Below, piece after piece: positions 4,641 through 22,879 of a stretch of 64,000 nucleotides of DNA (position 1 is the stretch's first letter; every line of letters starts with the position of its first letter). Under the pieces are notes generated by a model. The model saw nothing but the letters and a program-made list of their open reading frames with translations. It was not told the origin of the DNA and did no database searches. The stretch covers positions 247,132,001 to 247,196,000 of the forward strand of contig CM097885.1 of NCBI GenBank assembly GCA_044892525.1, given 5' to 3'. Both the position numbers and the translations under genes were made by a program. The stretch comes from Schmidtea polychroa. Lineage: Eukaryota.

Positions 4641-7600
4641 TGGACACTCAAAGGATATTCATCGAATAAAAAGATTGTTGAAAATACTAACGCAAATGAA
4701 AGGGACAGACGAAGAAGTCGGACGTAAGTTCAAAGTGATAATGAGATTAGAAGCAGAAAGAACTCAAGAGAAAGCAAAAAGAACCGGGAAGTGGAAAAAG
4801 TGGATGAACCTCAGACGAGACGATGATAGTGACAACGACAATGATGATTTCGACGACGATGATAATAACCAAGGAGGAGCAATGTTGATAAATAAAAATA
4901 CAGCCACTTGGGAAAACGAAAAAATGAAACCATGGGGATCACCGTATTCACAGACCCCATATTTACAAGCACCAACTAATGGACCAATGCGACGACCAGG
5001 AACAATGAGAGAACGGATAAGAATGGGAACCGGGAGATTGCCCGTACCAAATATTTACCCAACGGCGTATGAACCAAATTGGGCAGCAATGGACCCAACA
5101 ATGATCAAGCCAATTAAAAATGTGGGGCAAGAGGTGGAAACACGAACGATTGCGGTATTGCAGACACCAGCCGGACCATCATTAACCATCACGGTCGAAG
5201 TAAACGGAATAGAAATGGATGCAATGATCGATACCGGAGCAAATATTTCGGCAATAAATATGAATATGCTACCAGGCAGACTATGGCCATGCATTGAAGA
5301 GACAACCATGGATGTAATAACATGCAGCAAACAATCCATAGCGGTGGTAGGAAGAGTATGGTCAACGATTGAATATAAAGGGGTTAAAGTTACAACGTAC
5401 CTCGCAGTCATTAGACAGCTAAGCGTATCATGTATAATTGGAACAGATGTAATGCCGGAATTATTGAAAGAAATTGTGATTGATTTGAGTTCCATGAAAT
5501 TAAAAGATAAAACTGGACAGATATGCACAATGAGAACAGAAGTGAGATGCTCCGAAAAAATGATAATACCAGCACGTACCCAGACAATATGTTATGTCAA
5601 GGTCGATAACGAAGTCAAAGGAGATATGATATTTGAACCAAGTCAAAAATTCGAGAAGAGAAGGGAGCTGCCATTGGCAAGAGAAATTGTCAGTATAAAT
5701 GAGGATAACGAGATACCCATCAATATCACCAATTTTGATGAGGAAGATAAAGTAATCTACGAAAACGAGAGACTTGGAAAACTCACACCAATGATGAACA
5801 TTGAGCTACCGGAGATAAAAAGCGAGGGAGCAGACGAAAAAGAATTATGGACCATCGATAGCGAACTCCTAAATAAAGACGAAAAGGAACAACTCAGACA
5901 ACTACTGATTGAGTTTAAAGATATTTTTGCGGCTTCAGATTTGGAATTGGGTACTAGCGATGTAACTCAACACATTATACCATTAACAGATGAGACACCC
6001 ATAACGTTAAGACCATATCGATTGGCTGAAGCACAAAAAACGGTAGCAGAGGAAGAAGTACAAAAGATGTTAGATGCTGGGGTAATAGAACCTAGTTGCT
6101 CACCATGGCAATTCCCAGTGGTAATGGTCAAAAAGAAAGATGGCACACAGAGATTTTGTATTGACTATCGGAGGTTGAACGCAGTAACAAAAAGAGATAC
6201 ATATCCACTGCCAGACATAAACGAAATGTTACAGATGTTGCATGGAGCAGCATACTTTACATCTTTAGATCTAAAGAGTGGATACTGGCAAATTAAAGTT
6301 AAAGAGGAAGATAGAGAAAAGACAGCCTTTACCATCGGAAAAGATTTATATCAGTTTAAAAAGATGCCATTCGGATTAACAAATGCACCTGCTTCGTTTC
6401 AAAGATGTATGAACTTTGTGACACACGGAATTAAACAATGTATGGTGTATATTGATGATCTGTTAATTTATTCAGGTACTTTCGAGCAACACTTAATCGA
6501 TATCAGAAACGTCTTCATAAGACTGAAACAATGGAAGCTGAAATTGAAACCGTCAAAATGCGATTGGGCAAAGGAGAGAGTCACGTTTTTAGGACATATT
6601 GTGTCGGCAAAAGGAAAGGAACCAGATCCGAGAAACGTTGAAAAGATAAAAAATTGCCCGATACCAAAGACTGTGACTCAGGTACAAGAATTTCTGGGAT
6701 TATGCGGATACTACCGCAAGTTCATCAAAAATTATGCAACTATAGCAAAACCAATTCAGGAACTAACGAAAAAAGACACCCCATTTTTGTGGGAAAGAGA
6801 ACAGCAAATAGCATTCGAATCGTTAAGAGATAAACTAATAGCCTCACCTATTCTAATACACCCAGATTTTAAAAAGCCTTTTCTACTAGCAACCGATGCC
6901 AGTGGATATGCATCAGGAGCTGTGCTAGGACAATGGGATGAGGAGAAACGAGAAAGAGTCATCGGATATTATAGCAAGACGTTCAAAAAGCACGAAAAGA
7001 ATTACTCGGTCACAGAAAGAGAAGCCTTAGCAATAATTCAGGCGATAAAACATTTCAAATATTTATTGTGGGGACACGAGATAATTATTACTACAGACCA
7101 TCAACCTCTAGTTTGGTTGGGCCAACACAAAGAAGCATCTAGCCGATTGATGAGATGGGCAATGCAGTTACAAGAATATTCCCCATACATCAAATTCAAG
7201 TCAGGAAAAGCAAACGCAAATGCAGACTGCATGTCGAGATTTGTATTTGAGGAACTCATGGATCATGACGTCAGACGAATATGCCTGATAATCGCGGAAG
7301 ATATCGATTTTACCAATCTAAAGAACGAACAAAAGGAAGACAATGAATTAAAACTAATAATTGAGTTCCTGGAAAAAAACGATATGAAAATATTCAACAA
7401 CGATGATCGACTAAAAGAACACATGGAGAAAAATCGTCACAGATATACGATCGAGAAAGGATGGCTATTGGTAATGGATGGCGACAAACGATTGATGTGT
7501 CTACCAGAAAGTAGACGGAAAGAAATTATGATTCAATACCACGATGGTAAATTGGGCGGACATATGTCAGCCAAGAAAACAGAAGCAAGGCTCAAACAGA

Positions 7601-10600
7601 AATATTACTGGCCAAATATGAGCGATGACGTGAAAGAATGGATAAAGAACTGCCTGATATGCGCAACCAGAAAAACAACGGGCAGTAAACTAAAGCCACC
7701 ATTGAAACCAATGCCGATACCGCCAGAACCAATGACAATGATTGCAATGGATGTAGTTGGACCACTACCAGAGACTAACAGTGGAAATGTGTATATATTG
7801 GTAATAACTGATTATCTGACCAAGTTCCCTGAAGCATTTGCGATGCCAGACCAGAAAGCACGAACAGTTGCAAGGATATTAGTGGAAGAGATCTGCTGCA
7901 GATATGGGACACCAAAACAAATCTTAACTGATCAAGGAACTAATTTCATGAGCGAGATAATAAATGAAGTGACAAATTATTTTAGAATTGCCAAATTGAG
8001 AACCTCACCATACCACCCGCAAACGAATGGTCAGACAGAAAGATTTAACGGCATACTAATAGACATGATGTCCAATTACGTGAGTAAACATCAAAAGGAC
8101 TGGGATGAATATATTAAGTTGTGTCTAATGGCTTATCGAATGTCAATACACTCAGCAACGAAAATGAGTCCGTTTAAACTCATGTATGGAAGGGAATGCA
8201 ACATGCCGATGGATCTCGAATACCAACCGCCAATCTCACAATATATGGAGATAGATGATTATGTGACAAAGTTCAAGGAGAGAATGCAAGAAATATGGAA
8301 AACCGCAGGGATGAACATCCGATTCAACCAAGAGAGTTATAAGGAATTGCATGATAAAAAGAAGAACGTACAAAACCATCAATTTAAAATCGGAGATTGG
8401 GTTATTATAGAAACACCCGAATTAATCCCAGGAACAGCAAAGAAATTACAACGTAATGGCAGAGGGCCATATGAAGTCATCTATGTAAACGAGAACAACG
8501 CTAGAGTGAAGTTGGTTAACAATCCACTAATTAGACCCATTTATGTGAATACATGTCGATGCAAAGCAGTAGCGAAAACTGCCACTAAAGACCCAGAAAC
8601 AAGAAGGATAATCACGAGATCACAAACAAATGCCACAACGGAACCAGAAGTAAGCGGTAGATTAACTAGATCACAGACAAGACGAATATTCATGTTGAGA
8701 GGAGAAACAAGCAGCAGCGCCCATAAAGGAACTGAAGCAGAAAGCGAAGCTGACGCAATGGCAAGGAGCCAAGCAACATGGAATATGACAGTAAAAATAG
8801 CACGAGAAATTGTACCAGAATGGGCCGATATAACCAATAAATACCAAGTATTGGGCAAACTAATGTTAGTAGCAGAAAGATATGCGAAAGGACGAAGATA
8901 TGCCGAAGGATTACAAATACCGACTCAAATATATGAACTAATCCGGAGATTACCAATCATGTTCCTAACAAGTGATTTGAGTAATAACTGGCCAATCCAT
9001 CATGCAGTGAAAGCAGGACAAGAAAAACGAGCTTTAGAGATTATACGAATAATGGAAAACTGCAAACAATCAACAAACGTCAAAAACAGTAAAGGAAAAA
9101 CTCCACTGATGAAAGCCATAGCAATAGGCGCGTCAAGAGATGTACTCAGAGAATTATTAAGAACGGGATCCACGCTGAAAGAAAAAGACAACAAACAACG
9201 AACCGTATTACGTTATGCCGTCAGGTCAAAAAGACCTAGTATAGTGAACTTTATCACAGGAAATGCAACAACCGAAGAAGCCGAGGTGTTGGGACAGAGC
9301 ATTGAACCAATTCTGGAAGCCATCAGAGGAAACTTAGACAGAACCGCAGCAATATTAATCAAATGGAAACAAAACGAATTAAGAGCGGAAGTAATTGATA
9401 TAAATCAATTCCAAAACAACGAAAATATCGTACTAAGAAGCGCCATATACTCAAGACCACCAATGCCAAAAACCATTAAAGCAATATTACAGAGAAATAG
9501 AACAGAATTGACAGGTAATTGGTGGAAATGCACAAAAACACATGCGATGAAAAAGCAACTAGAAATACTAGTGTGGGAATGGCACCGGAAACAACGGAAA
9601 TATCAAGGAACCAAAGAAGAACGAGAAAGTATCCACAACGACAAAAAAGAGATAATTAAAAAATACGAGGAGATGATCAAAGCAGCAAATGTCGAGGACG
9701 ACATTTTCAGGAAAACCCCGGGTGAGAGGAATGACGACGACGACGACGACGAAAGGATGGGGGATAACGATAACAACCCAGAGGAAAACGACAGAGAACA
9801 GAATCCGGAAGGCGGAGAAACAACGAGTGATGATGAGGAATTGGAAGAAGACGAAGAAGACCAATGTCGAGGTGAAGATCAAGGATTCGACAAAACGGAG
9901 AACAAAAAACGAAAGTCCCCACTACATAGCATAGTGTGTCGAAATCAAATCCAGCCAATCCTACTACAAAGAATATTTATAATATTAACATCCATCTGTT
10001 TAACAGAAACAAAAAATATAAGAATCGTAAGAGAAGCTTCCCAAGAAGGTGAAGCATTTATGATAAAAGTCAGTGATTACGACGGAAATGCCGTCGGAAT
10101 ATGTGTGCAATTAATGGAAGGAACAGGAGTAAGTTGTGATTTCAGATCGATAACAAAAGGAAAGATTTTTAGCAGCCAAAAAAGAGATCCCAGGCTATGT
10201 GGAGATTATGACATCTGTAGAGACATATCAACAGAGGAAATGGAGCTAGAAAGAGCCAACGAAACCGGAGTACATTTTCAACTCAACATTTTGGAAGAAG
10301 GTATCGAAATAGAAGATAAAGGGAGTCGATCAATTACACATGTATGCATCAGAGAAGACAGAGACATATGCATAATAACTGATATGACACAAGACCACAA
10401 ATTCTTCTGGGGAGAGGTCAAACCAAATACCCCTACTGTGGTATGCGCAGGAACACAAGGGATAGTAGTATGTAAAGGAACAAGAACTGCACCAAGAAAA
10501 GACAAGCCAAAGAGTATGGCAATGAAACAAGATCCATTAAGGGGGATAGCAACCAAGAAGCCAAACAAATCAGTTAGTACAAAAACAACAACAGAGCAAA

Positions 10601-11448
10601 ATCAAACCGAATTAATAACAACAACAACATGGATTAACGAAGTAATTAAAGACGAAAGACGGGAAGTGCAGATAACTATTAACCTCAACAAGAAAGGTGA
10701 AGAGGTAATTACAGTCAAAAACCAGGAAGGAGAACCAATCATAAGGATATGTGTAATGGATAAGACGGGAATAATCGACTGTACAACAACACCGATAGAC
10801 AAAGGTACAGACGTTAAAATGGAGACAGGGAAACGGAAAGAACGATACCAAGTATGTATCCTTAAGAAAGGAAGAGGAACCAGCGTATGTCAACCAATAA
10901 CTCGACAAAAACCCCAATTAATAAACATACCATGGATACCCCGAGATCAAGAAGGGGGAGAGAAACGGGAAAATCACAGTCACCTAACAGAAAAAGAGAA
11001 GGAACGATTACATCAAGCATTCAAGAAAATCAAAGCACCAGAAACAAATACCACAGGTAGTACAATATTAACGACAGAAAAAACAAATAATGGAACAACG
11101 ATCATCACAAAGATGATATGGATAACTAGCGCGATAGTAAGCACGATAATAGCGTTAGCAATGATTCAGTGGATAAGAACCACCAAAAGATGTAAACAAA
11201 AACCGAGAAACCAAAGAAAATGGCCCAAAGTGGAAAAATTTGAATACGGTATTCCAACAGAGAATCTGAATCTAGAAGAATACGAGGTGGTAGAGGATCC
11301 CGGATCCAGCGGATTGTGGATGTCGGAACTACCAAGAATACCCACACCGAACGAATGGACACACGAAGTCGATATATACCGAATAACGGACGAAAGATAT
11401 GGGGGAATGCGCACGCTGCATTCCGGCCCCATGGCGACACTGGTATAA
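3217..11448 (+). CDS. pol: Polyprotein part 2: glycoprotein remainder, Pol (PR-RT-RH-IN), ankyrin repeats, C-terminal membrane protein
   Basis: 2743-codon uninterrupted frame, open from 3130; listed start is TTG, so it is probably the continuation of ORF1. Confidence 0.95.
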   Translation: MNGQLVSGVVVIESYEAKLERYQGYFDPDTQAMKKYPSCLASDRSCSTGMSTLVYHADQKVCRLMLLKTAIFEEIQGKVYSEPKGEAEKRAMEELRARKGFREDVITSKLESEVTPTAIISKDDGIGMRFIKNKMVSKCDEMVISTNYKGIYLSRRTLANAVGRLSEKDVKLYLYANNKMDFLYHRGLTSTEKVYHDLLRNDCLLNKEILRTKLAMAITNPDNAIPLLPLQEGYFGRIVGEVMYTYQCKKIMARLPENPTIPRDKCANELEIIHEGKPRFVQAVTRVMNPVGFQPNLFNCSNAYGPMYEKEDGQWVQFPSKTIVVTPKKFGLTELTTELEFKPIDVSQSGLYTPKDLESARAHLLFPAQRQAILSNIVTISGGNNYGESPNYELLLSPSHYQQATANMMKAMWGRFLVFGQMMAGILGIILIIQIVRVILTQMLACFDIYKRERKVNWKLAIGFLPFLAKTMVLHGHSKDIHRIKRLLKILTQMKGTDEEVGRKFKVIMRLEAERTQEKAKRTGKWKKWMNLRRDDDSDNDNDDFDDDDNNQGGAMLINKNTATWENEKMKPWGSPYSQTPYLQAPTNGPMRRPGTMRERIRMGTGRLPVPNIYPTAYEPNWAAMDPTMIKPIKNVGQEVETRTIAVLQTPAGPSLTITVEVNGIEMDAMIDTGANISAINMNMLPGRLWPCIEETTMDVITCSKQSIAVVGRVWSTIEYKGVKVTTYLAVIRQLSVSCIIGTDVMPELLKEIVIDLSSMKLKDKTGQICTMRTEVRCSEKMIIPARTQTICYVKVDNEVKGDMIFEPSQKFEKRRELPLAREIVSINEDNEIPINITNFDEEDKVIYENERLGKLTPMMNIELPEIKSEGADEKELWTIDSELLNKDEKEQLRQLLIEFKDIFAASDLELGTSDVTQHIIPLTDETPITLRPYRLAEAQKTVAEEEVQKMLDAGVIEPSCSPWQFPVVMVKKKDGTQRFCIDYRRLNAVTKRDTYPLPDINEMLQMLHGAAYFTSLDLKSGYWQIKVKEEDREKTAFTIGKDLYQFKKMPFGLTNAPASFQRCMNFVTHGIKQCMVYIDDLLIYSGTFEQHLIDIRNVFIRLKQWKLKLKPSKCDWAKERVTFLGHIVSAKGKEPDPRNVEKIKNCPIPKTVTQVQEFLGLCGYYRKFIKNYATIAKPIQELTKKDTPFLWEREQQIAFESLRDKLIASPILIHPDFKKPFLLATDASGYASGAVLGQWDEEKRERVIGYYSKTFKKHEKNYSVTEREALAIIQAIKHFKYLLWGHEIIITTDHQPLVWLGQHKEASSRLMRWAMQLQEYSPYIKFKSGKANANADCMSRFVFEELMDHDVRRICLIIAEDIDFTNLKNEQKEDNELKLIIEFLEKNDMKIFNNDDRLKEHMEKNRHRYTIEKGWLLVMDGDKRLMCLPESRRKEIMIQYHDGKLGGHMSAKKTEARLKQKYYWPNMSDDVKEWIKNCLICATRKTTGSKLKPPLKPMPIPPEPMTMIAMDVVGPLPETNSGNVYILVITDYLTKFPEAFAMPDQKARTVARILVEEICCRYGTPKQILTDQGTNFMSEIINEVTNYFRIAKLRTSPYHPQTNGQTERFNGILIDMMSNYVSKHQKDWDEYIKLCLMAYRMSIHSATKMSPFKLMYGRECNMPMDLEYQPPISQYMEIDDYVTKFKERMQEIWKTAGMNIRFNQESYKELHDKKKNVQNHQFKIGDWVIIETPELIPGTAKKLQRNGRGPYEVIYVNENNARVKLVNNPLIRPIYVNTCRCKAVAKTATKDPETRRIITRSQTNATTEPEVSGRLTRSQTRRIFMLRGETSSSAHKGTEAESEADAMARSQATWNMTVKIAREIVPEWADITNKYQVLGKLMLVAERYAKGRRYAEGLQIPTQIYELIRRLPIMFLTSDLSNNWPIHHAVKAGQEKRALEIIRIMENCKQSTNVKNSKGKTPLMKAIAIGASRDVLRELLRTGSTLKEKDNKQRTVLRYAVRSKRPSIVNFITGNATTEEAEVLGQSIEPILEAIRGNLDRTAAILIKWKQNELRAEVIDINQFQNNENIVLRSAIYSRPPMPKTIKAILQRNRTELTGNWWKCTKTHAMKKQLEILVWEWHRKQRKYQGTKEERESIHNDKKEIIKKYEEMIKAANVEDDIFRKTPGERNDDDDDDERMGDNDNNPEENDREQNPEGGETTSDDEELEEDEEDQCRGEDQGFDKTENKKRKSPLHSIVCRNQIQPILLQRIFIILTSICLTETKNIRIVREASQEGEAFMIKVSDYDGNAVGICVQLMEGTGVSCDFRSITKGKIFSSQKRDPRLCGDYDICRDISTEEMELERANETGVHFQLNILEEGIEIEDKGSRSITHVCIREDRDICIITDMTQDHKFFWGEVKPNTPTVVCAGTQGIVVCKGTRTAPRKDKPKSMAMKQDPLRGIATKKPNKSVSTKTTTEQNQTELITTTTWINEVIKDERREVQITINLNKKGEEVITVKNQEGEPIIRICVMDKTGIIDCTTTPIDKGTDVKMETGKRKERYQVCILKKGRGTSVCQPITRQKPQLINIPWIPRDQEGGEKRENHSHLTEKEKERLHQAFKKIKAPETNTTGSTILTTEKTNNGTTIITKMIWITSAIVSTIIALAMIQWIRTTKRCKQKPRNQRKWPKVEKFEYGIPTENLNLEEYEVVEDPGSSGLWMSELPRIPTPNEWTHEVDIYRITDERYGGMRTLHSGPMATLV
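5180..5460 (+). other. Retropepsin aspartic protease
   Basis: AMIDTGANISAI (DTG at 5230) and downstream CIIGTDV (IIG.D motif). Confidence 0.93.
6000..6700 (+). other. Reverse transcriptase (Gypsy type)
   Basis: RFCIDYRRLN, YPLP, LDLKSGYWQI, MPFGLTNAPASFQR, YIDD at 6448-6459, FLGHIVS. Confidence 0.97.
6880..7250 (+). other. RNase H (Ty3-type)
   Basis: LATDASG..GAVLGQ, NYSVTEREALAI, TDHQPL, RLMRWAMQLQEY, KSGKANANADCMSR. Confidence 0.96.
7480..8500 (+). other. Integrase with HHCC zinc finger, DDE core and GPY/F module
   Basis: YHD...GHMS...CLIC; AMDVVGPLP; TDQGTNF; YHPQTNGQTERFN; RGPYEV at 8461-8478. Confidence 0.96.
8990..9490 (+). other. Ankyrin repeats (3 clear, up to 5) fused downstream of integrase
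   Basis: WPIHHAVKAGQ; KNSKGKTPLMKAIAIG..DVLRELLRTG; KDNKQRTVLRYAVRS match the G.TPLH.A...G consensus. Confidence 0.85.
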
Positions 11449-11596
11449 CGAGAGGAGGAGTTGTTGTAAATAATGTATAAATGAAATGATAAAAGTAGTG
11501 ATAATAGTAGTGGTATGTACAAAATAAAAGTAGTAAATTAAAACAATATGTAGAAAAATCAAAAACAAGTATGATGACCATGTATTATAAATAGGA

Positions 11597-12052
11597 ATGA
11601 ACCAGAGAAACGAAGAGCAAGAACACCCAAATGGGATACCACATGTTGTTGAAGTAAGAGAACAGCCGCTTATGAATGTACATCCAGTAGACATGATGGA
11701 AATGAACGTGCCAAACCAGCCGAGTCAGCCAACAGGATCCATGTGGAGGGCACAGTGTGAATTAATGACCCAATTGACAAATCAGACTCAAGAGCACTGG
11801 GTACGAAACCAAACGGCGTTGATAGAGAGTATTAATAGAAACGCAATATATATTACAAAAATAGAGGAACAACACCAAATAATCGCGCAACTAGAGTATA
11901 ATAACAATCAGTTAATAAGCCAAATCAGATGGCAAGCGGAAGAAATTAGAAGGTTGCATGAAAATCGACAACATGATGATATTACCAGTTTAGTCGAGTG
12001 GATGACCGGGTTACCAGGAACAGGGGAACCGGACTCGACGGTAGATGTGTAG
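11597..12052 (+). CDS. Cargo ORF, 151 aa, central coiled coil, unknown function
   Basis: ATG start, same strand and composition as the element, heptad pattern ITKIEEQHQIIAQLEYNNNQLISQIRWQAEEIRRL. Confidence 0.7.
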   Translation: MNQRNEEQEHPNGIPHVVEVREQPLMNVHPVDMMEMNVPNQPSQPTGSMWRAQCELMTQLTNQTQEHWVRNQTALIESINRNAIYITKIEEQHQIIAQLEYNNNQLISQIRWQAEEIRRLHENRQHDDITSLVEWMTGLPGTGEPDSTVDV

Positions 12053-12141
12053 GAGAAAAAGGAGTGAAATGTAAATAATCCTGTAAATAAATAGAGTTAT
12101 AATCAAGTAGAAATCCCAAGATTAAAAATCATCATTGTAGA

Positions 12142-13566
12142 ATGCAAAACAAAGCAGAGGAAAACCGGAGAGAAGCAGAGGAACAAAAGATTAACTATGA
12201 GTTGATGAGAAAATACCAAGCCGAGCCGGACGAGTTCGAAGAGAGATTATTATGTGCCGATACAGCATGTAGAAGATTATTAATTGGAGCAAGTCAAACT
12301 CGATGCGGGTGTAGATTGTGCCGAGGGTGTGATATAAGATTAGCCAGACTAAAGCGAGAAACTTGTCCAGGATGTGGAGAAGCATTTAAGTTGGTTCCCA
12401 CTGGTACGATACCGGATAGAGCAATGAACCGAGAAATCAGAGAAGTGAAAATAAGATGCACCCAAAGGTCATGCGAATGGACAGGCCGAGTAAAGGAGTT
12501 AAGAGCCCATACAGACGTATGCGAATATCTAGAATCGGAATGCGAAGCATGCACGGTAAAGTTTTTACGAAAAGAGAAAACCAAACATAAAGGGGAATGC
12601 AAAGCGCGAACGGAAAAATGCGAATTTTGCGGAGAAACTGCTAATTGGAGAGAAATCGAAATGGAACATCGAAACGCAGTAGAAAGACGGATTTGCGACG
12701 AATATACAGGGAAATGCCCAAACGAGTGTGGAGAAATTAACAACGTCAGATTAAATGAACATTGGGAGATATGCACGAGAAAAGCAATAAAATGCCCAAT
12801 GGTGACATTCGACTGTAGAGCACAATTACCAGCAGAAGAAATGAAGAAGCATGTGGAGGAGAATACATTCGAGCACATGCAAAAGATGATGAGAGCAATA
12901 GAGTTAACAGCAAGAGCAATTGAAGACGTCAAAGACGAACTCAAATCACATAAAATCATGATAAAAGAAATGCTGAGCTCACAGGAAAGCTTCGAAAATA
13001 CGAGAGAAGCCGTAACACAAAGGATGTTGAAATTAGACGACAAATTAGTCGAAGTAACTAAATTACAAACCAAATGGACTACAAAGGAACTGACAACAGA
13101 GGAACTACCAATACTACCATACATGTGGAAAATCCAAGGAATAACGGAAATAATGGAGCAAGCAAAGCAAGGAATCCAGACAACGATAGTGAGCAAACCA
13201 TTCTACGCCAAGAAACATGGATACAAGATGAAATTGAGATGGTTTCCAAATGGTGAAGGAAAGTTTAAAGATCGGTGCATGTCCATATATATGCAAATTT
13301 GTAAAGGAGATTTTGACGACCTAATAGCATGGCCATTCCGACATCGATTAAAAATATCTCTCTTAGGAGCAAAAAAGACACATATAATGTGTTTTCGAGC
13401 ATCCAGTCCAGCAGGGAATAAACCGATTACAGAGGTTAATCCTGCGGTAGGAGTAGCAGAGTTTATGCAGCTATACCAATTTAACGAAGGGTCCTACATA
13501 GAAAAGGACACTATATTCTTCCTAATCGAACTAGATGAGGAAGGACCAACAATAGAAATACGATAG
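12142..13566 (+). CDS. traf: Full-length intronless TRAF-family protein (variant RING, TRAF zinc fingers, coiled coil, MATH)
   Basis: RING CADTAC...CGCRLCRGC...CPGC; zinc fingers C...C.W.G....L..H...C; MATH YMWKIQG...SKPFY...YKMKLRWFPNGEG...GDFDDLIAWPF. Confidence 0.93.
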   Translation: MQNKAEENRREAEEQKINYELMRKYQAEPDEFEERLLCADTACRRLLIGASQTRCGCRLCRGCDIRLARLKRETCPGCGEAFKLVPTGTIPDRAMNREIREVKIRCTQRSCEWTGRVKELRAHTDVCEYLESECEACTVKFLRKEKTKHKGECKARTEKCEFCGETANWREIEMEHRNAVERRICDEYTGKCPNECGEINNVRLNEHWEICTRKAIKCPMVTFDCRAQLPAEEMKKHVEENTFEHMQKMMRAIELTARAIEDVKDELKSHKIMIKEMLSSQESFENTREAVTQRMLKLDDKLVEVTKLQTKWTTKELTTEELPILPYMWKIQGITEIMEQAKQGIQTTIVSKPFYAKKHGYKMKLRWFPNGEGKFKDRCMSIYMQICKGDFDDLIAWPFRHRLKISLLGAKKTHIMCFRASSPAGNKPITEVNPAVGVAEFMQLYQFNEGSYIEKDTIFFLIELDEEGPTIEIR

Positions 13567-13706
13567 ACGGATAGAAGGGAACTGTAAATATTTTGTAAAA
13601 ACGATGTAAAGTAAATATAAAGTTATTGTATACAGTAAAGTAACGTGCCAAAACCATAAAAATTAGAAAAAGAAAATGTAAAAAGAAATGATGAAATTTA
13701 TTATAG

Positions 13707-14885
13707 ATGATTAATCAAGAGAGACCGAATATCCGAAAGAAAACGATCACAATGAGAGAGGAAGAGGACAATATGTCACCTAGAGAAAGAGTGAAGGATG
13801 CGGAAGTCAGCAAAACAAAACCAAGTAGTTACGCATATTATCGGAGAATGGGAAACGATTATAATTGGGTACACGAAAATTTGAAACTGGGAAATAATGA
13901 ACAATTCAGATGTGAGAACCAGAGATATCTGTCATTTGAACATCAGACCATTTTTACCAAGGAACAAAGCCGAGCGCTAGCACGCGACGGATTTTTCTTC
14001 TCTGGAAAACCAGAGATACCCGATCAAGTAACATGTCGTTTCTGTAAAGGGAAATTAGCAGAATGGAAAAAAGGAGAACACCCAAAGGAGGAACATCGTA
14101 GACGATTCCCAACTTGTCTATTCGTACTGGGATTTGATGTACACAACAAACCGGAAATCAAATACGAAGCCTTGGAGAAATTGAAAACTGAAGACGAAAA
14201 AGGAGGGAAAATGAGCATCGCGATAACCAGAATCGTTGATGAGTATGTTCCAACTTGTGAAGGGGAATTCCTCACGCAAATAGCAGATAATAGAATGAAA
14301 ACGTTCGGAGATGATACGAGAGGACCTGAATTAGCAATAAGAGGGTTCTACCTAACAGAAAATCAAATACTAAAGTGTGAAAGATGCGAAAGCCAACAGA
14401 GATTACCGGAAGAAGGCATACCAGAAATTAGACATCAAGCATGGTGCCTATATCACAACGAACAAGAAACCGAATATCCGGAAGTACTAGTAACAGAGGA
14501 AGAGGTTGACGAAGTGGTAGACAAACCCAACATGTGCAGAGCGTTGAAAGCAGCCGGAATAGGCACGACAAGGGCAAAGAACATGATTAGAGAGAAACTA
14601 CAGAAAAATGTACATATACCAACAACAACGTACGATATGATCAGAGCGATAACCCAGTATAGAGAAAAACCTGAAACAAAAATAAAAGAAGAATCAATGG
14701 TCAAAACAGCTATCTTACGAGATATCAAATGTACTATGTGTTGGGAGAGGAGTGTAGAAGTTATTCATATGCCATGCGGACATTTGATCGCATGTGCCAC
14801 ATGTAGTAGAAAAGTAAAGGAATGTCCGATGTGCAGACAGAGGATTGCGCAGCGAATCAAAGGATTCCGCTACGCCGATCAATAA
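13707..14885 (+). CDS. iap: Inhibitor of apoptosis (IAP): BIR, degenerate BIR, C-terminal RING
   Basis: BIR1 R..SF...LARDGFFF...VTCRFC-x16-H-x6-C; BIR2 RMKTF...LAIRGFY...CERC...H...C; RING CTMC...PCGHLIACATC...CPMCR. Confidence 0.94.
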   Translation: MINQERPNIRKKTITMREEEDNMSPRERVKDAEVSKTKPSSYAYYRRMGNDYNWVHENLKLGNNEQFRCENQRYLSFEHQTIFTKEQSRALARDGFFFSGKPEIPDQVTCRFCKGKLAEWKKGEHPKEEHRRRFPTCLFVLGFDVHNKPEIKYEALEKLKTEDEKGGKMSIAITRIVDEYVPTCEGEFLTQIADNRMKTFGDDTRGPELAIRGFYLTENQILKCERCESQQRLPEEGIPEIRHQAWCLYHNEQETEYPEVLVTEEEVDEVVDKPNMCRALKAAGIGTTRAKNMIREKLQKNVHIPTTTYDMIRAITQYREKPETKIKEESMVKTAILRDIKCTMCWERSVEVIHMPCGHLIACATCSRKVKECPMCRQRIAQRIKGFRYADQ

Positions 14886-14967
14886 CAAAAATTAAAATTC
14901 CGTGTATAAAGTGTAGATAATAAATGTATGAAATAATAGTGGTAGTAATAGTGTAATTATTTAGACA

Positions 14968-16533
14968 ATGAATAAAGAATCACAAACCTATGTGGAAACC
15001 GAGATGCAACAACTCGAACAGTACAAATCCATCATACAAACATACGAAGCAGAAAGAGTAAAGAGAGAAATAGAAATGTACAAAACCATGTATGAGAAAA
15101 AGCAACAAGAATTAGAAGCGGAGAAGGCGGAAGCACTAGCAACAAAGGAGGAGTGGATGAAACAGGTAGAGGAATTAACCGAGGATGTGAGAAATACCTC
15201 AACATACCAAGAATTGGAGGAAGAGCTCTCGAATTTACGAACTCAGCGGATTATGGAGATAGTTGGGTTATGCGGAGAGATAATAATGCAGAAGGCACAA
15301 ATTAGGGAAGCAAAGGAGCAATACGAGGAGGAACAGCGTAAAACGGAACGAATAAAACTACAAGCGCAACAATGGAAACTAAAGTACGAAACCCTCCAGA
15401 CAAGGCAGAATGATAGTCACGAACATCAAATACGGAATTACAAGGCCGAACTAGAAGAAGTAAAGGGCAAATGCGCAATGATGAAAGAAAAATGGGAAAG
15501 ATGCAAAAAGACCCTAAACGAAGTCAGAGGGCAAGGGAGGAGAACACCGCATAGAGAACCAATTGTTAGAAATAACGTATTAGAGCGAATTAACACACAA
15601 ATAAAGATACAAGCCCAGAAATGGAAGTATAAATACCTAGGAAGTCAAACTCAAGTGCTCTATTGGAAAATCAGTAGCAAGGAACAACTGCGATTACGAA
15701 AAGCAGACCAAGAATTTTACGAAACAAGAGCTGCACAGCGAGAAGAAGAGGAAGTAGAGTGGAGAAAACGACAGCAGAAAACTGAGGAAACCGAAAAGTG
15801 TCTCAAGCATCAAGCCCGAAAATGGAAAAAGAATTGGAAAGAGACCAAAGAGGAGTTAAGACAGTTACCAATAAAACTGATGGAAAGAGACGAATTTAAA
15901 ATATGGGAAACGATAGAAAACCAAAAAGATGAGATCAGCCGATTGAGTAGAGAACATAGAATCAAGACGCGGATCAGCGACGGTAGACAGAGAATCATAA
16001 AGAAACAGACTCGAGAAATAAGAAGGTATGAATTCCAGGAAAAGAGATGGGAACAACAATTGACAGACCAAGATCGACAGATCCGACAATTACAAACCGA
16101 AGTGGAAGAAGCCAATCAAGAGATGAACGGATATAAAGGTATGTACACCCAAAGGGATGTGAATTGGAAGCACCAGATTGAGCTTAATGCGAAATATAGA
16201 GAGGAGTGCGACAAGACAATTCAACAAACCAAACAGGAAACCGAGATAATAAAACGATGCTTCGAAGAAAATGAAGCAAATTTGAGAGCGGAAATTGAGA
16301 AACTAAAAACGCTCGAAAGAACCCAACGATTGGAAGAGGAATTAAACGAAATGATAGAAAACGAAGGTAGATTAACGTTTTTATTGGATGAGGAAATAAA
16401 CATCTCAACGGAACTACGAGAGGAAATAGATCGGTTAAGGAGACAACCACCAATATTATTAATGCCTGCCGAAGTCACCACAGATGAAGGCTTCGATGAA
16501 AATAACGAACAAAATAACGCAACATGGATTTAG
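14968..16533 (+). CDS. Cargo ORF, 521 aa, long coiled-coil protein
   Basis: E/K/Q/R-rich heptads along most of the length; ATG preceded by an acceptor-like TAG. Confidence 0.8.
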   Translation: MNKESQTYVETEMQQLEQYKSIIQTYEAERVKREIEMYKTMYEKKQQELEAEKAEALATKEEWMKQVEELTEDVRNTSTYQELEEELSNLRTQRIMEIVGLCGEIIMQKAQIREAKEQYEEEQRKTERIKLQAQQWKLKYETLQTRQNDSHEHQIRNYKAELEEVKGKCAMMKEKWERCKKTLNEVRGQGRRTPHREPIVRNNVLERINTQIKIQAQKWKYKYLGSQTQVLYWKISSKEQLRLRKADQEFYETRAAQREEEEVEWRKRQQKTEETEKCLKHQARKWKKNWKETKEELRQLPIKLMERDEFKIWETIENQKDEISRLSREHRIKTRISDGRQRIIKKQTREIRRYEFQEKRWEQQLTDQDRQIRQLQTEVEEANQEMNGYKGMYTQRDVNWKHQIELNAKYREECDKTIQQTKQETEIIKRCFEENEANLRAEIEKLKTLERTQRLEEELNEMIENEGRLTFLLDEEINISTELREEIDRLRRQPPILLMPAEVTTDEGFDENNEQNNATWI

Positions 16534-16546
16534 TCGAAGGGAGATG

Positions 16547-16704
16547 NNNNNNNNNNNNNNNNNNNNNNNNNNNNNNNNNNNNNNNNNNNNNNNNNNNNNN
16601 NNNNNNNNNNNNNNNNNNNNNNNNNNNNNNNNNNNNNNNNNNNNNNNNNNNNNNNNNNNNNNNNNNNNNNNNNNNNNNNNNNNNNNNNNNNNNNNNNNNN
16701 NNNN
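16547..16704. other. Assembly gap (N-run) inside the element
   Basis: Run of n. Confidence 1.
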
Positions 16705-16775
16705 AAATTACAAAACCAAAAAATTCAGAATAAAAAGAAGACAAAAGGAAATATGATATGTATATTTTTGTAGAT

Positions 16776-17543
16776 ATGAATTATTTAAAAGAAAGAGAAT
16801 CAACGAGTAACGAAGGAAAGTCAAACGACCAACCTGAACAAAACCAGGATATGATACCAATCAAACAAGAACCGATGAAATATTATAGCAATAAATGGAG
16901 AGTCAGCAAGAAGTTGTTCAAATTAAAGATTGCAAATCAAAATGTAGAGATTACGAGATTGAGGCAGCATATTGTTCAATCAAGACGATTAATAAACACT
17001 GTCAAGCAAGAAATTTTGAGGGAAATAAAGGAATCGAAACGAAAAGAGACAGAAAATAAAAACCTGAGACGAGAGATAGTAGAGTTGAGAGCTCAGGCAG
17101 TAATCGAAGATTATTGGAAATCAGAAACAAGGAAGTTGAAAAAGATTGTGAATATCGACCAAGTCTATATCGAGCAGTTAGAAGCACAATATGCTTATGC
17201 AAAAACAAGAGTGCGAGAAAGTAAAAAAGTCGAGAAGAGAAATGTAAAACTCAAGGAAGAGATCAAGGAACAAAGAGAGGAAACAGAAAAACAATGGAAG
17301 TTGAAAGAAAATTACCGGAGAATCTTAAATCAAAAACGACGAAGCATGCAAGCATTGCAGACGGCAATAACCATCAAGCAGAGAAAATGGAAAAGTAAAG
17401 AGAAGCAATTACAAGAAATACCAGAATTAAAGAGACAGTTGATAGCAACGCAACTCGAAGTAATAAGAATGAACGAGTTGAGCAAAAGACGAGCACCTGA
17501 ACCTCCCGTAAAATTAAGGGATGAGGTCGGTGGCTCCCAATAA
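16776..17543 (+). CDS. Cargo ORF, basic coiled-coil protein (~255 aa; ATG 16776 preferred over 16758)
   Basis: Open frame 16758-17543; TTTTTGTAG acceptor directly before in-frame ATG 16776, matching the other cargo ORFs. Confidence 0.75.
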   Translation: MNYLKERESTSNEGKSNDQPEQNQDMIPIKQEPMKYYSNKWRVSKKLFKLKIANQNVEITRLRQHIVQSRRLINTVKQEILREIKESKRKETENKNLRREIVELRAQAVIEDYWKSETRKLKKIVNIDQVYIEQLEAQYAYAKTRVRESKKVEKRNVKLKEEIKEQREETEKQWKLKENYRRILNQKRRSMQALQTAITIKQRKWKSKEKQLQEIPELKRQLIATQLEVIRMNELSKRRAPEPPVKLRDEVGGSQ

Positions 17544-17619
17544 ATGAGACAAAATAACCGTGTAAATAAATTGTAAATAAAGCCAAGTAATTATTATTAA
17601 CATATATGTATATGTAAAG

Positions 17620-18606
17620 ATGAGAAGCCTAATCGTGATGATGATTATAATGACAATGCCAAAAATCCTGCAAGCAGAAGAATCAATGATCAGATGCCAG
17701 AAAGAATACCCATATCGCAGAGAAGATAGTACATGTAGTAGCTTTAAATCGATCTGCGAAAAACCCAATGAGGAATGCGAACAAATCAAGTTACAATGTT
17801 CGCAATGTCCACAAACAACTGAAAGTTCGACGGAAGTGCAAATGGCTCAGACAATAAAAACAATGTTAGAACAAGAAATGAAAGTTATCAGAACCCAGAT
17901 AGCAACATTAGCCAAACAATGTCAAAGTCAGAAATCAAAGAGAGAATCCCAAACAGATCCAGCCGCAATGAGAATGATGGTAATAATATTAGAGGAAATA
18001 AAACAACAGGTAACAGCAACCGCCTATGGACGTTCAAGCAATTGCGAAACAGTAGTAAAATCTTTGGAGGAAATGAAAGGAAAAATAACTTCCATCATCA
18101 AAGAGGAACCCAGCATTAAAAATGAGGTAACGAAAACCTTGAAAGAAATGACAAGGGAAATCCTAACTACCATAAACAAAAACCCAACGAACTCCGAGAA
18201 GATGATTAAAACCCTTGAGGCAATAAAGAAAGTTGTCACCTCAGAAGAAAACAAATTCAATAAGCCCGAAAAATCAGAAACGGCGGATACAACCCAATTA
18301 AAAGAAATTATGAACAAACCCAAAGTAATAGAACCGAGAGAGTCTGAATCCCTCACAATAGTGATCCTATTAGCGGCGAGCCTAATGATAAACATCACCG
18401 TACTGAGCCTGATTGCACTCAAACCCAATTCCAGTAAAGAAAGAAACAAAACCCTCAAACTAAAGGAACAATCAAGAAGTATTCGTATCCCAATGGAAGA
18501 ACAACTAGTCCAAACAACGAACCAACCAAGCTACTTCAAATCTTCCCCAAACATTGAAACCAGAGCCGTCATCGAGACGAGATCCCGAACAACCGAATTT
18601 TATTAA
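17620..18606 (+). CDS. Cargo ORF, 328 aa type I membrane protein with Cys-rich N-terminus
   Basis: Signal peptide MRSLIVMMIIMTMPKILQA; six-Cys cluster; TM LTIVILLAASLMINITVLSLIAL followed by a basic tail. Confidence 0.8.
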   Translation: MRSLIVMMIIMTMPKILQAEESMIRCQKEYPYRREDSTCSSFKSICEKPNEECEQIKLQCSQCPQTTESSTEVQMAQTIKTMLEQEMKVIRTQIATLAKQCQSQKSKRESQTDPAAMRMMVIILEEIKQQVTATAYGRSSNCETVVKSLEEMKGKITSIIKEEPSIKNEVTKTLKEMTREILTTINKNPTNSEKMIKTLEAIKKVVTSEENKFNKPEKSETADTTQLKEIMNKPKVIEPRESESLTIVILLAASLMINITVLSLIALKPNSSKERNKTLKLKEQSRSIRIPMEEQLVQTTNQPSYFKSSPNIETRAVIETRSRTTEFY

Positions 18607-20959
18607 TGTGACATCACGACAGTATAAACATTTCATGACATTATAAAACATTATCAAACAATCATGATTTCAAAGACTGAGACTGATTGTGACTAATAAC
18701 ATTGATTCTTGAGCATGATAATTTTATTTTTGTGTGGACCGACCTCGGTCGTTCTTTTTCTTCATCTTTCAACCCATCCGTAGAATGTAGTATAATAGTA
18801 GCCTTTTTATGTATGTGGGTATTGAGGTCACGACCCTGTAGCTCGTGGACCCAATTTGCATGTAGGCACTTGTAATATAGTGCAAGTATTCTGAAAATAA
18901 TTTTCTTCATCTTGTGATTTAAATTGCGGGTCGCAATTTTATGGGCCCCCGAGTGTTTTATGTTGGGCTAGAACTGATTTCTAGACCCAAAATACTAATT
19001 GTGACTGAAACGCGTAAGTACACAGCAAGTAAAAAAGCACCAAGTATAGTTAAATATTAAAACCTACACCAAATAAACAATATTAACTAAAGGAGAAAGC
19101 AACAAAAACATAAACAAAGAAATTAAACAAAATTATACAAAAGCAAGAAGTGATGCAAAAATCTAACTCAAAAATAACCAAATAAACACAGGGTTACAAA
19201 AAACAGACTCGAATAACTTAAAAGACGATAAAAACAGTAAAACATTCCAGAAAAACCCAGAACATTCTATAAAAATGGCGATGACCATCACAAAAGTTAT
19301 CTAGAACAACAAAAGTTAAGGAAAATAAATAAATTAGTATTAAAAATAATAAATCTTTAAAAGAAATTCACAAAACATCAGTTAAAATAAAAATTAAATT
19401 AAAAATAAAATAGAATGTTCTGGAACCGTTCCAAATCCATCATGGACGGCAAATTAACGAAAAATAATTAAAAAATAAAAATATAAAAATAAAAACAAAA
19501 ATTATGGCACAAAAATTGTCATTAAAAATAGCAAAATCGCTAAATAGAAAATTCTGGAATAAAAAGAATTCGAGTTTGTTTTAATGCATCAATACATACA
19601 CGTGTACTAAATAGGTATATATACTGACACGTTTCAGTCACAATCAATCACTTTTATGCCAAATTTTTGTGACGAAATTTCCAAAATCGATAGTAAGCAT
19701 TGATCTTTATTTGTATATTAATTGTTTAATTATATAGATGGTATTTTAAATTTATTTTTTGCTTAAAATTTTTTGCGATGTATGAGTGATCAACGGCGTA
19801 CTGGTATTCCTGCGTCGTTGTTCAGTCCTGCATCCAATTTATTAAAATCGCTATTAACAGGACATGCAGACACGCATTATCATTATTATAGTGATATTTA
19901 TTATATGATTTCTTTTTGTTCGGGTCAGCCGGAGGTCGAACTACTTCATGGTCCTGCCATGGAGTTAGGTCGAGGAAACCCTCCGCCTGACTCTTCGTAT
20001 TTATTTAAGGTCAGCCGTAAATGGTTGACTTAGCACACAACACTAAGGTTTGTGGACGTGGTCACAGTGAGGCCATGAAAGCAATATTCTTCCCGACTCA
20101 TTGCGTAATATACAATTAAACTCAACACTTAAAATCCTGAACAATAACTCTACACTAAGGTTCTAATTTGAGTAGAGCTCGTACCTAAAATTACACAATT
20201 CTACACTCACATTAATGTAGCTAGTTGATTCATAATGGTAATTTCAATTATACTTAGACATATGCCGAACTAGATTTTGTAGTAAGGATCTTTGATAAAG
20301 TAATAGAAAAAAGAGAGATATTCGGCATACGTACAGGTATAACTTGATCTAGATATGTTGATTCCGAGTAAAGATAGACATTTTAAATCTAGCTCCCACT
20401 TTAAAATGTTTGTAAATGTGTAGGCTCTTAGTTGCAATATTCTTGTTGTTAACTATAAAACTATAAGTTATAAATAATTACGATAGCTAGGTACAAACCA
20501 CGTCGATCCTGAAAATGTAAATTGTTAATGGAGAAAGTCTGATCAGAGATAGTAGTAAACAATTTTCGTATAAAAATCAACTTAGGATTGGTTACAGATA
20601 GGCGATAGACGCGCTAGAACCCTGAAGTTTAATCCACAAATAGGACCAGGAAATCTGTAAGTACTGCGGAAAACAATGTTGATCATAGAAGGAAGTTGTA
20701 AGAAGTATATTCCGTCGACTAAAAATTTCAAATTATAAAGTATGAAAATACGAATTACAAAAGTATAAATTTTAGATTATAAACTTATAAATTATAAGTT
20801 AAGCAATTATAACTTATAAAAAATGAATGTATAAATTTCAAAATATGAAATTAATTATAAATTACAAGATTGTAAATCCCTAAATGGAAAAATTTTAAAT
20901 TATAAATCGAAAATTATCAAAGTATAAATTATAAAACATGAATTTATAATTCTAAAACA

Positions 20960-21320
20960 TGGATTATAAAATTATAGTTATCATAATCCTGATCATTTCC
21001 CTTGTTATTACTATTAGCAGTATCAACATTATCATTACTATTAGTATTATTATTCTTATTATTATTATATTATTATTATCATTATTATGAATATCATAAT
21101 TAGCATTATTATTATTATCATCATTATCAGTACCATTATAAAAATTTATTATTATTCTTGTTATTACTATTATTAGTATTCTTATTATTACCATTATTAA
21201 AATTTATTATTATTCTTATTATTATTACTATCATTGCTATTATTAATATTATTATTATCATTATTATTACTATTATTAGTATCGTTATTTCATTGTTATT
21301 ATTATTGGTATTATTACAGT
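20960..21320. repeat. Degenerate (ATT/ATC/ACT)n trinucleotide microsatellite
   Basis: About 360 nt of attatt/atcatt/actatt units. Confidence 0.9.
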
Positions 21321-21831
21321 TAACTACAAAAAATCGATATCCCAATCCGATATCGATCACCTGGAAATTTAGAAATTAGCAAATTAAATAAATTACTTGT
21401 ATGCAGAGCAAACCACTCATAACGAGCACAACCGAAGGAAAGGTAAGCAGACGAAGAGCTTAGTTCGTTGCTAGTACCTGTCGCCCCAGCGTGCCCGAAT
21501 TTAGTGGCCTAAGAATGACGATCAAAAAGGAAAAAATTCACATTTTATTAATATGTAAATTAAAATTTATAAATAGTAATTAAAATTACTACTCAGTGGT
21601 AAACAAAATTTTGAATGGAAATGATTAATTTAAACAAACGAATTTTGACGAAAATTTTTTTTGTGTGTTTGTTTTGATAAAGTAGGAAATCTTATTCCAC
21701 TGCTCCTAAACTTATAGATGGTAGTCTTAAAATAAAATATTTTTTTTTAAAGGGAAAAAGGGTCAACAAAATCTTGTGGTTGACGTCGTATCTCAATCAG
21801 TATAGAGGGGCTTGATTATTATTTTGTAGAA

Positions 21832-22197
21832 ATGTCCTACTCTGACAGCGATAGCCACGAAGAAGCCGACCGACAGATGCTTACCAGACTCCGTACACGG
21901 TACATATGGCACCGTATCCATGATTGGAATCGGGGTTTGGACCTCGACAACTTTGGCCCAGTAATCAGGAGTGGGCCGGAGCCGGACGCTCCGGCGTGGG
22001 TAAAAACAGAGCCCACAAACGATTTTTTGCAAGAGGCCCGCGACCGAGCGGCCATCGAGGTAGAAGCAGCTCAGATGCGACTCAAGAAGATCGAGCTACA
22101 AATCCAAGCAGAAAAAGAGGGAAAAACCGTGGAGGACCTAGAAGAGGCCGAGGCAACCCCGCGGAAGAGGGGAAGGCCTCGCAAGCGACTGAACTGA
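21832..22197 (+). CDS. 121-aa protein with C-terminal AT-hook
   Basis: GC-richer island; PRKRGRPRKR; TTTTGTAG acceptor 2 nt before ATG. Confidence 0.6.
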   Translation: MSYSDSDSHEEADRQMLTRLRTRYIWHRIHDWNRGLDLDNFGPVIRSGPEPDAPAWVKTEPTNDFLQEARDRAAIEVEAAQMRLKKIELQIQAEKEGKTVEDLEEAEATPRKRGRPRKRLN

Positions 22198-22408
22198 CTC
22201 ATCGTCAAAAATTTTGTTTTTTGCAAATTAACATTCAGTTGCGATTTTATTAAACTTTGATTTTAGTGATAATTATTTCAGTCCTTTTAATAAATCATCT
22301 TGTGTATTGCGTGCTTAACATCCGAAACTATGTTTATTTATAATATTGATTTTATTTTATAATTGAATGAATAGTATGCTGCAAGAATATAATCGTTGAA
22401 TTTATCTA

Positions 22409-22879
22409 GTGTTCAGACTATTGGAAAATCTGCGAAGAGATAGGGCAGAAGCTCAAAAACAGTCCGAGGAGCTCCGCATACGAGTAGACAAGCTCAAGGG
22501 ACGGTGCCGGGAACTAGAAAGCACCTGGTTTAGTCCCGAGGATATGAAAAAGAAGGTGGCGCAGGTCCTTCAACTGCAGACTCAAGCCGCGCAGGATCAG
22601 ATGGAGATCCGGGCACTGAAGCTCCAGCTCCGCGCGCTAGAAACCGAGCGAAATGAACAAGTAGTTCACGGAGCCGCCATAAGCCAAATCCGGCCGTTGA
22701 CCGTGGAACTAGCAGCAATATACCCCCCGGCCGCGAAAGAGAAACCCAAAAGAAAGCGGTTAGGCCGAAATATTCGGGAAAAATTGAAGAAAGCTAGACT
22801 GGCCGAATACGAGCGACAAGCAAATTTGTCACTAGCAGCTGCGACGAAATTGGCCAGTCCTACCAATAAGCCTGTTTGA
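22409..22879 (+). CDS. Coiled-coil protein with basic NLS-like C-terminus (5' end probably supplied by splicing)
   Basis: 156-codon frame without ATG at its start; TTTATCTAG acceptor at 22401-22409; KPKRKRLGRNIREKLKK. Confidence 0.55.
   Translation: MFRLLENLRRDRAEAQKQSEELRIRVDKLKGRCRELESTWFSPEDMKKKVAQVLQLQTQAAQDQMEIRALKLQLRALETERNEQVVHGAAISQIRPLTVELAAIYPPAAKEKPKRKRLGRNIREKLKKARLAEYERQANLSLAAATKLASPTNKPV

Follow-up and report, generated by a model that had tools for sequence, protein, structure and literature searches.

How does a 30-kb retroelement express six downstream genes from one promoter? This question is raised by a 64,000-nt stretch of the Schmidtea polychroa genome (GenBank assembly GCA_044892525.1, contig CM097885.1, positions 247,132,001 to 247,196,000 of the forward strand), here called the window, whose start falls inside a giant Ty3/gypsy element with a total span of 34.3 kb. 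In this element a gag-env-pol polyprotein frame is followed by six cargo open reading frames (ORFs), and our analysis covers the six spacers that run from the polyprotein stop to the last cargo ORF. Five of these are gap-free in the window, whereas spacer 5 is mostly N; all features given below lie on the forward (+) strand. The spacers carry a conserved tandem motif behind the stop codon that opens them and an AG resembling a splice acceptor at their other end. The explanation that we favour, with moderate confidence, is that the former is a tandem UGUANA(U/A)A block tied to the stop and likely bound by Pumilio on the translated mRNA, and that the latter would serve for splicing.

Tandem motifs behind the stop codons

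The motif has the consensus TGTA-N-A-(T/A)-A, and in the five gap-free spacers its first TGTA lies at +17, +18, +17, +18 and +18 from the stop, a fixed distance that the original prediction, made from the letters of the window, had correctly put forward. It is tandem in each of these spacers, a point that the original prediction had overlooked, with repeats about 9-12 nt apart (+17/+26, +18/+30, +17/+28/+39, +18/+27/+40 and +18/+29). Spacer 1 (11449-11596, 148 nt) carries TGTAAATA at +17 and TGTATAAA at +26 (11465-11481), the first of which is unchanged in 41 of 41 copies of the element. In spacer 2 (12053-12141) two TGTAAATA stand at +18 and +30 (12070-12091), the second fused with AATAAA, while spacer 3 (13567-13706) holds TGTAAATA at +17, TGTAAAAA at +28 and TGTAAAGT at +39 (13583-13612) without AATAAA. 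Spacer 4 (14886-14967) shows TGTATAAA at +18, TGTAGATA at +27, AATAAA at +34 and TGTATGAA at +40 (14903-14932), and spacer 6 (17544-17619) shows TGTAAATAAA at +18 and +29 (17561-17581). Spacer 5 (16534-16775) is largely N in the window, and of 39 other copies 36 have the motif in this spacer, at +17 or +19. Every site listed in the original prediction, namely TGTAAATA at 11465, 12070, 12082, 13583, 17561 and 17572 and TGTATAAA/TGTAGATA at 14903/14912, is present. The 354 nt behind the stop of the last cargo ORF contain no motif. Two more TGTAAATA words, 24 nt apart, occur in the leader of the element (locus L023), about 6420 and 6400 nt before the window begins and some 320 nt behind the 5' long terminal repeat (LTR), and are not tied to any ORF of at least 45 aa.

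Enrichment over shuffled spacers, which had been proposed as a check, is pronounced: six TGTAAATA compare with a mean of 0.39 in 20,000 dinucleotide shuffles, none of which reaches six. TGTANATA occurs within 35 nt of the stop in 5/5 spacers, against 0.22 expected from dinucleotide shuffles. Within the spacers the motif is found 13 times in sense and once in antisense, and the 17,634 nt of coding sequence contain no TGTAAATA at all.

The features said to accompany the motif fared less evenly. AATAAA does overlap three of the six TGTAAATA, as had been noted, but it is not enriched in the spacers (5 against 4.6 expected, P 0.50). The purine tract described in front of the motif exists as a weak bias (76% purine, where the coding sequence of the element has 64%; p 0.013) but is missing in spacers 4 and 6. 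The claim that spacers 1 and 4 share ATAATAGT(A)GTGGTA holds well: their alignment scores 32 versus 14.9 with the motifs masked, none of 500 shuffles is as good, and the sequence common to them beyond the motif lies at 11501-11515 and 14933-14944. Since these two spacers share sequence and a related family (family F, below) lacks the IAP gene that precedes spacer 4, IAP may have been added together with a duplicated spacer.

No spacer is in frame and each contains one to eight extra ATGs, which argues against read-through and scanning; stop-codon read-through was rejected on these grounds. Structured re-initiation signals were also rejected, as RNA folding of the spacers revealed no special fold (z 0.06-1.01).

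We further compared 44 copies of the window element's family (family A), chosen from a list of BIR matches with diverged copies favoured (90-97% identity), of which 41-44 aligned per spacer. A column was counted as variable when a variant was common to at least two copies, which excludes private decay. By these counts, which ignore the tree and in which related copies are not independent, 4 of 96 motif columns are variable, compared with 27 of 83 in the filler before the motif, 42 of 260 in the rest of the spacers and, for reference, 135 of 1341 second codon positions and 156 of 436 four-fold sites. The motif differs from four-fold sites at p 1e-11 and the filler does not (p 0.62). The column counts place the motif at or above protein sequence in constraint and the purine tract among neutral sequence. 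The motif is under strong purifying selection. The length of the filler is also kept, with the first motif at the window's offset (+17/+18) in 199 of 211 copy-spacers.

Related lineages, designated families B, F, G and H, extend the comparison; of 20 further loci examined, nine were informative (L228, L229, L230, L232, L236, L237, L241, L244 and L245). In family B, whose pol is 45% identical to that of family A across the part compared, the pol stop is followed at +21 by TGTATAAA, in a 176-nt spacer with TTTCAG 3 nt before an 81-aa ORF; there is no motif behind that ORF and no strict Pumilio element (UGUANAUA, see below) in the spacer. Family F has the same cargo order without IAP, at 25-34% identity (TRAF 30-34%), and carries the motif at +14 to +23 in 4/5 internal spacers, behind fillers that are not purine tracts. 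In its copy L229 the motifs are tandem (+14/+25, +20/+30, +16/+29 and +19/+29), and L232 and L241 agree where intact. Two F copies whose TRAF ORFs are 69% identical match, over three spacers, at 47/48 motif letters, 32/47 filler letters and 269/380 other letters. Across families the first offsets range from 14 to 23 (29 in G), while the distance to the next ATG ranges from 18 to 203 nt; the narrow stop offsets and wide ATG distances show that the motif belongs to the upstream stop.

In host genes the motif falls in the +14 to +23 range in 1 of 50 G-protein-coupled receptor (GPCR) genes (70 loci sampled, 20 excluded with helix 7 not in frame) and in none of 19 TRAF 3' ends. AATAAA occurs at +2 to +14 in 7 of 36 first sites of the host; with this hexamer as near as +2, nuclear signals need no gap from the stop, whereas the element motifs never occur before +14. 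One host GPCR gene (L193, C4:87170501-87172900) carries tandem TGTAAATA at +10 and +22, fused with AATAAA.

Putative Pumilio sites and acceptor-like spacer ends

In PUF proteins the residues of the recognition motifs read the RNA bases. The host genome holds one Pumilio gene, and in its eight repeats the aligned recognition motifs agree with those of human PUM1 or PUM2 or of fly Pumilio. We compiled 23 motif instances from four lineages. Both position 6 and position 8 hold A in 21 of them and position 7 holds T in 16; variants alter position 5, which takes A, T or G, and position 10 is unconstrained (A in 11). Fifteen are strict UGUANAUA, which the available part of PMC5758885 gives as the PUM1/2 element, and six are the fused word TGTAAATAAA; at least one strict element is present in 5/5 gap-free spacers. 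Of the three readings that had been offered for the motif, Pumilio elements therefore fit best. The likeness to the Pumilio response element, as that source in part describes it, extends to the sequence, the free fifth position, the multiple copies, the sense strand and the place behind the stop. The element's motifs differ in their fixed distance of 14-23 nt from the stop, their recurrence in each spacer of a polycistronic retroelement and the A at position 7 in about one third of instances. We consider them likely, as putative sites, to be bound by host Pumilio.

The opposite ends of the spacers also follow a pattern, which the original prediction did not mention. In 7/7 spacers (six in the window and one in family B) an AG lies 0-3 nt before the ATG, with a chance product of 2e-4 for a criterion set post hoc; a T-rich stretch precedes each AG, and 6/7 have a branch-like word near -20. 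Spacer 1 ends in TGAC, a T-rich stretch and TAG 2 nt before the ATG (11572-11594; AG in 40/41 copies), spacer 2 in TAG 1 nt before it (12127-12140; 42/42) and spacer 3 in TGAT, a T-rich stretch and TAG abutting it (13689-13706; YAG in 43/44, one of them CAG). At this last site, the IAP start, the letter at -2 is A in 210/210 genomic copies, with no other letter seen. Spacer 4 has TAG 3 nt before the ATG (14946-14964; 43/43 copies), the readable end of spacer 5 is TTTTTGTAG 2 nt before the ATG at 16776, and spacer 6 has AAG abutting the ATG (17598-17619; 41/41), the sole non-YAG. Altogether the AG is kept in 209/211 copy-spacers, with one TAG-to-CAG change, and the spacer ends resemble host acceptors. 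As far as sequence can tell, these AGs are likely to be used as splice acceptors. An acceptor-like AG also stands directly before the first ORF of the LTR, before a RING-like leader ORF lying 6025-5543 nt ahead of the window, and before a related LTR ORF in L042.

The cargo ORFs would, under the favoured reading, be made from separate mRNAs spliced to the spacer acceptors, with either a common leader in cis or a spliced leader (SL) in trans. SL trans-spliced operons of similar layout occur in nematodes, and complex retroviruses and the adenovirus major late unit use common-leader alternative splicing with one acceptor per accessory ORF. The element resembles these common-leader systems in having one acceptor per accessory ORF and differs in its stop-tied tandem motif, for which we know of no counterpart in complex retroviruses or the adenovirus major late unit. 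In the flatworm Macrostomum, as reported in the accessible portion of PMC8629364, operons have gaps of about 100 nt and neoblast genes are heavily trans-spliced, which makes a trans route possible for the cargo ORFs as well. Those operons share with the element the head-to-tail genes, gaps near 100 nt and an acceptor before each downstream ATG; unlike them, the present arrangement belongs to an LTR element whose full-length RNA has to be made too, and it showed no spliced-leader junction or internal poly(A) site among the contig rows listed (below).

Sites for bound factors fail within about 15 nt of a stop codon, in the shadow of the ribosome. The gap of at least 13 nt from the stop, together with the neutral filler, points to action on translated RNA, and the filler would hold the sites at a point that the terminating ribosome just leaves uncovered. 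From there, bound Pumilio may set the stability of each cargo mRNA, either as a shield against nonsense-mediated decay (NMD) for mRNAs with further cistrons behind the stop or by repression via deadenylation. We lean slightly towards the shield, by the example of PTBP1 on a retroviral stability element (below), but Pumilio being mostly a destabiliser in PMC5758885, plain repression is about as likely as shielding.

With nested cargo mRNAs that all run to the LTR end, a long 3' untranslated region (UTR) would follow each stop except the last, and the pattern in family A fits this expectation, with internal stops marked and the last stop not. All tandem blocks lie within +14 to +47. The sections available of PMC4764554 report that PTBP1 bound within 50 nt of the stop protects from NMD whereas binding at 50-100 nt does not, and the upper distance limit of the motif agrees with this 50-nt rule. 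Sites within about 50 nt of long-tailed stops are found in the five gap-free spacers, in spacer 5 of 36/39 copies and in 4/5 internal spacers of family F. The RNA stability element (RSE) of Rous sarcoma virus (RSV), which PTBP1 binds in the same partial source, is likewise part of a retroelement RNA, with several sites directly behind a long-tailed stop and a dependence on position; it differs in being a single, CU-rich element of 400 nt, compared with blocks of 20-30 nt containing UGUA behind up to six stops. By analogy, tandem Pumilio sites might mark every internal stop of nested spliced cargo mRNAs and turn a stem-cell repressor into an NMD shield, a tentative proposal that we rate well below the favoured reading as a whole.

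Several observations weigh against the favoured reading or its shield variant. Spacer 4 and family B open with a motif (TGTATAAA) that departs from the strict element, and the shortage of common indels in the filler (1 in 83 nt against 18 in 320 nt elsewhere) is only suggestive at p 0.07. Long-tailed stops without such sites include that of cc1 in family F, whose spacer lacks a stop-proximal motif in 3/3 copies; those of family H, where no motif was seen; that of the last ORF of family B; and that of the leader RING-like ORF, which has no motif though much RNA lies behind its stop. The last two, both motif-free, have AATAAA close behind the stop. Family G has one motif at +29, outside the 14-23 range, and single motifs occur behind the last ORF at +25 in F1, +55 in F2 and +44 in G. 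The A and F spacers may be homologous, in which case they are not fully independent. TGTA(T/C)ATA words before family F acceptors hint at a possible role in splicing. PUM1 and PUM2 are mainly destabilisers in the part of PMC5758885 available, which speaks against shielding, and our literature search found no direct precedent for a Pumilio shield.

Words of the type TGTA(T/C)AT stand 10-25 nt ahead of several acceptors; family F (L229 and L232) shows this best, and in the window they occur at 17604-17619 and 16758-16773.

Alternative readings of the motif

Among the alternatives, the one that survives best takes tandem UGUA as internal 3'-end signals, with a CFIm25 dimer and an overlapping AAUAAA or variant giving short monocistronic cargo mRNAs, either as alternative last exons or through an operon resolved by trans-splicing. 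We regard this as possible and rather unlikely; it would be compatible with Pumilio binding in a 50-nt 3' UTR. CFIm25 binds two UGUA at once, and the host genome contains a well-conserved CFIm25 gene. The fused word, which makes up 6/23 of the motifs, is seen three times in a set of 50 host 3' regions, where 0.29 would be expected, and not at all in antisense. AATAAA stands at +18 to +49 in 11/19 host TRAF 3' ends, most of them from one clade, and the motif is mostly missing behind last ORFs. The spacers, at 76-148 nt, also match the Macrostomum operon gaps of about 100 nt given in the portion of PMC8629364 cited above.

Set against this, AATAAA in its exact form is unenriched and spacer 3 has none, just 11/23 motifs carry A at position 10, and the TGTATATA variants of family F break the hexamer while keeping the Pumilio element. 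According to PMC5068929, planarian poly(A) signals are not preceded by UGUA, and a nuclear signal leaves the gap from the stop unexplained. The original proposal of internal poly(A) sites stays credible but second to Pumilio elements. Spacers 2, 4 and 6 are crossed by contigs from four sequencing runs (X1, X3, X4 and X5), which are guessed to be RNA and diverge by about 5%, although full-length RNA must cross them under any model. Among the 24 of 230 loose ends listed, none is A-tailed in a spacer, contigs being unable to show ends; A-tailed ends at 18804-18856 and 19314-19353 may reflect internal priming. Coverage by all four runs thins out beyond about 20236, near a donor-like ATG|GTAATT (20237/8), and one contig leaves the reference at 20229; with divergence near 20236 at about 11%, we draw no conclusion from this. 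Two back-joints with inserted letters, from 20854 to 12077 and from 19082 to 13606, are possibly chance matches.

A more improbable alternative sees in the motif a 5' splice site, T|GTAAAT, genuine or a decoy, so that the spacer would be a small intron, the ORF a cassette exon, or the downstream acceptor damped to let full-length RNA survive. GTAAATA is donor-like, each spacer ends in AG, and the last ORF, which lacks the motif, needs no donor; moreover, a junction less than 50 nt behind a stop escapes NMD. The pol spacers contain better donor words deeper in, consensus GTAAGT at +33 (L229:1944) and +32 (L232:1833) in two family F copies and GTATGT at +65 in the window (11513), and such a word could shorten the 3' UTR of the polyprotein mRNA. 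The motif itself, however, has an invariant T at -1 and an almost invariant A at +5, its variants GTATAA, GTATAT and GTAGAT are poor donors, and host donors, placed for one TRAF clade only, are mostly GTAAGA. No precise GT..AG deletion and no processed copy was found among the 41-44 aligned copies. Likewise, none of the nine contig joints listed from the four runs removes a spacer, and none of them is an acceptor junction.

A role in the DNA itself, as a forkhead- or TATA-like internal promoter that would drive the downstream ORF, is very unlikely for the motif: GTAAATA fits the forkhead word and TATAAA or TATATA the TATA box, but the position tracks the upstream stop rather than the downstream ATG, no single DNA motif covers both TGTAAATA and TGTATATA, and the motif is strand-specific (13 sense to 1 antisense). 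The idea that the spacers are functionless relics of the junction between polypurine tract (PPT) and U3, copied at each gene capture, can be set aside almost entirely: in spacers 1-3 the TGT does come after purine-rich stretches (76% purine), in family B TGT stands behind an ordinary PPT, and the similarity of spacers 1 and 4 lends some support to the spacer duplication it entails, but the LTRs start with TGTTG in families A and B (TGTTGGG in A), family A has no purine tract before the 3' LTR at 50/50 junctions, the alignment of spacers to this junction that had been suggested was no better than shuffles (P 0.30-0.99), the tract is neutral where the motif is strongly constrained, and family F fillers are not purine tracts.

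The element and the meaning of its spacers

By Pfam, the element's domains run from MATH and a Monjiviricetes fusion glycoprotein to protease, reverse transcriptase (RT), RNase H, integrase and ankyrin, followed in separate cargo ORFs by TRAF and a BIR-RING IAP, with four further ORFs that have no convincing family. The 3' part of the gag-env-pol frame (3313-11448) covers the fusion glycoprotein, protease, RT, RNase H, integrase and ankyrin; in the window copy the frame is broken between 3220 and 3313, and its stop opens spacer 1. Cargo ORF A (11597-12052, 151 aa) has no Pfam family and is 30-32% identical to its family F counterpart. It is followed by the TRAF ORF (12142-13566, 474 aa, zinc fingers and MATH), the IAP ORF (13707-14885, 392 aa, BIR and RING) and cc1 (14968-16533, 521 aa), a charged protein without Pfam family that is probably a coiled coil. 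The ORF cc2 (16758-17543), again without Pfam family, likely starts at its second ATG (16776), and the last cargo ORF (17620-18606) encodes 328 aa. The 3' LTR (18961-23277) is not preceded by a purine tract. A stretch in the PPT position (18931-18960) can pair with the element's sequence resembling a primer-binding site, in the 30 nt behind the 5' LTR, at -24.9 kcal/mol, against -13.7 in shuffles (4/1000 as good), and may circularise the RNA or replace the plus-strand primer.

The LTRs, of 4317 bp each, lie 30.0 kb apart, have TG..CA ends and 99.98% mutual identity, and are flanked on both sides by the target-site duplication ATAG; the IAP start is found in at least 210 genomic copies. Planarian Burro/GYPSM1 elements, in the accessible text of PMC6431247, are giant gypsy-like elements of more than 30 kb with env between gag and pol and with accessory ORFs. 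They share with the present element MATH, ankyrin, BIR/RING and coiled-coil cargo in accessory ORFs and hundreds of young copies. Neither the design of spacers nor the expression of accessory ORFs is covered in that text. Exceeding 30 kb, bounded by LTRs and a target-site duplication, with a fusion glycoprotein before protease, RT, RNase H and integrase and with MATH, ankyrin and BIR cargo, the window element is a Burro-type giant gypsy, assigned by the layout described for Burro/GYPSM1. No Burro protein appeared among the results of a protein search or a metagenome scan, the former returning two mollusc IAPs only for the IAP query and the latter 10 generic gypsy loci, none with comparable cargo.

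The LTR itself holds ORFs, at 21832-22197 and 22544-22879. Some family A BIR matches have, about 9-10 kb downstream, matches to another type of LTR ORF (C1:75212569, C1:168735876, C2:10410139 and C84:125443), and this suggests that the family A internal region is paired with more than one LTR type; upstream of the second LTR-ORF type, twenty loci showed no cargo. One copy (L096, C2:172575001-172585000) has an internal tandem duplication of about 10.7 kb from env to the IAP start, which was considered as a splice product and rejected in favour of a local duplication. Head-to-tail element copies about 30 kb apart are also present, and env matches on C52 and at 120.4 Mb of C2 are decayed. The AT-rich flank of the element in the window contains a 105-nt inverted repeat spanning the second N run, and two tandem arrays (25018-25227, 57450-58024 and 61247-61538 for these three features).

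The spacers form a compact, conserved two-part code, in which a probable acceptor for the 5' end is joined to a stop-tied, putative protein-binding block. We found no published account of Burro spacer motifs in a full-text search outside which most of the subscription literature lies, and the motif is apparently an undescribed, conserved regulatory feature of a known kind of element. Its retention while the cargo proteins diverged to about 30% identity indicates that it matters to the element. Protection of planarian stem cells has been reported for the Burro1 gene B-IAP, according to a citation in PMC13465017. If the shield proposal were true, it would represent a new role for Pumilio and a reusable cassette for adding genes one after another, would link Pumilio to the element's anti-apoptotic IAP, and would extend the principle of RSV and PTBP1 to another protein family and to a polycistronic element. 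The motif points to a host factor, Pumilio or else CFIm, in a tractable animal.

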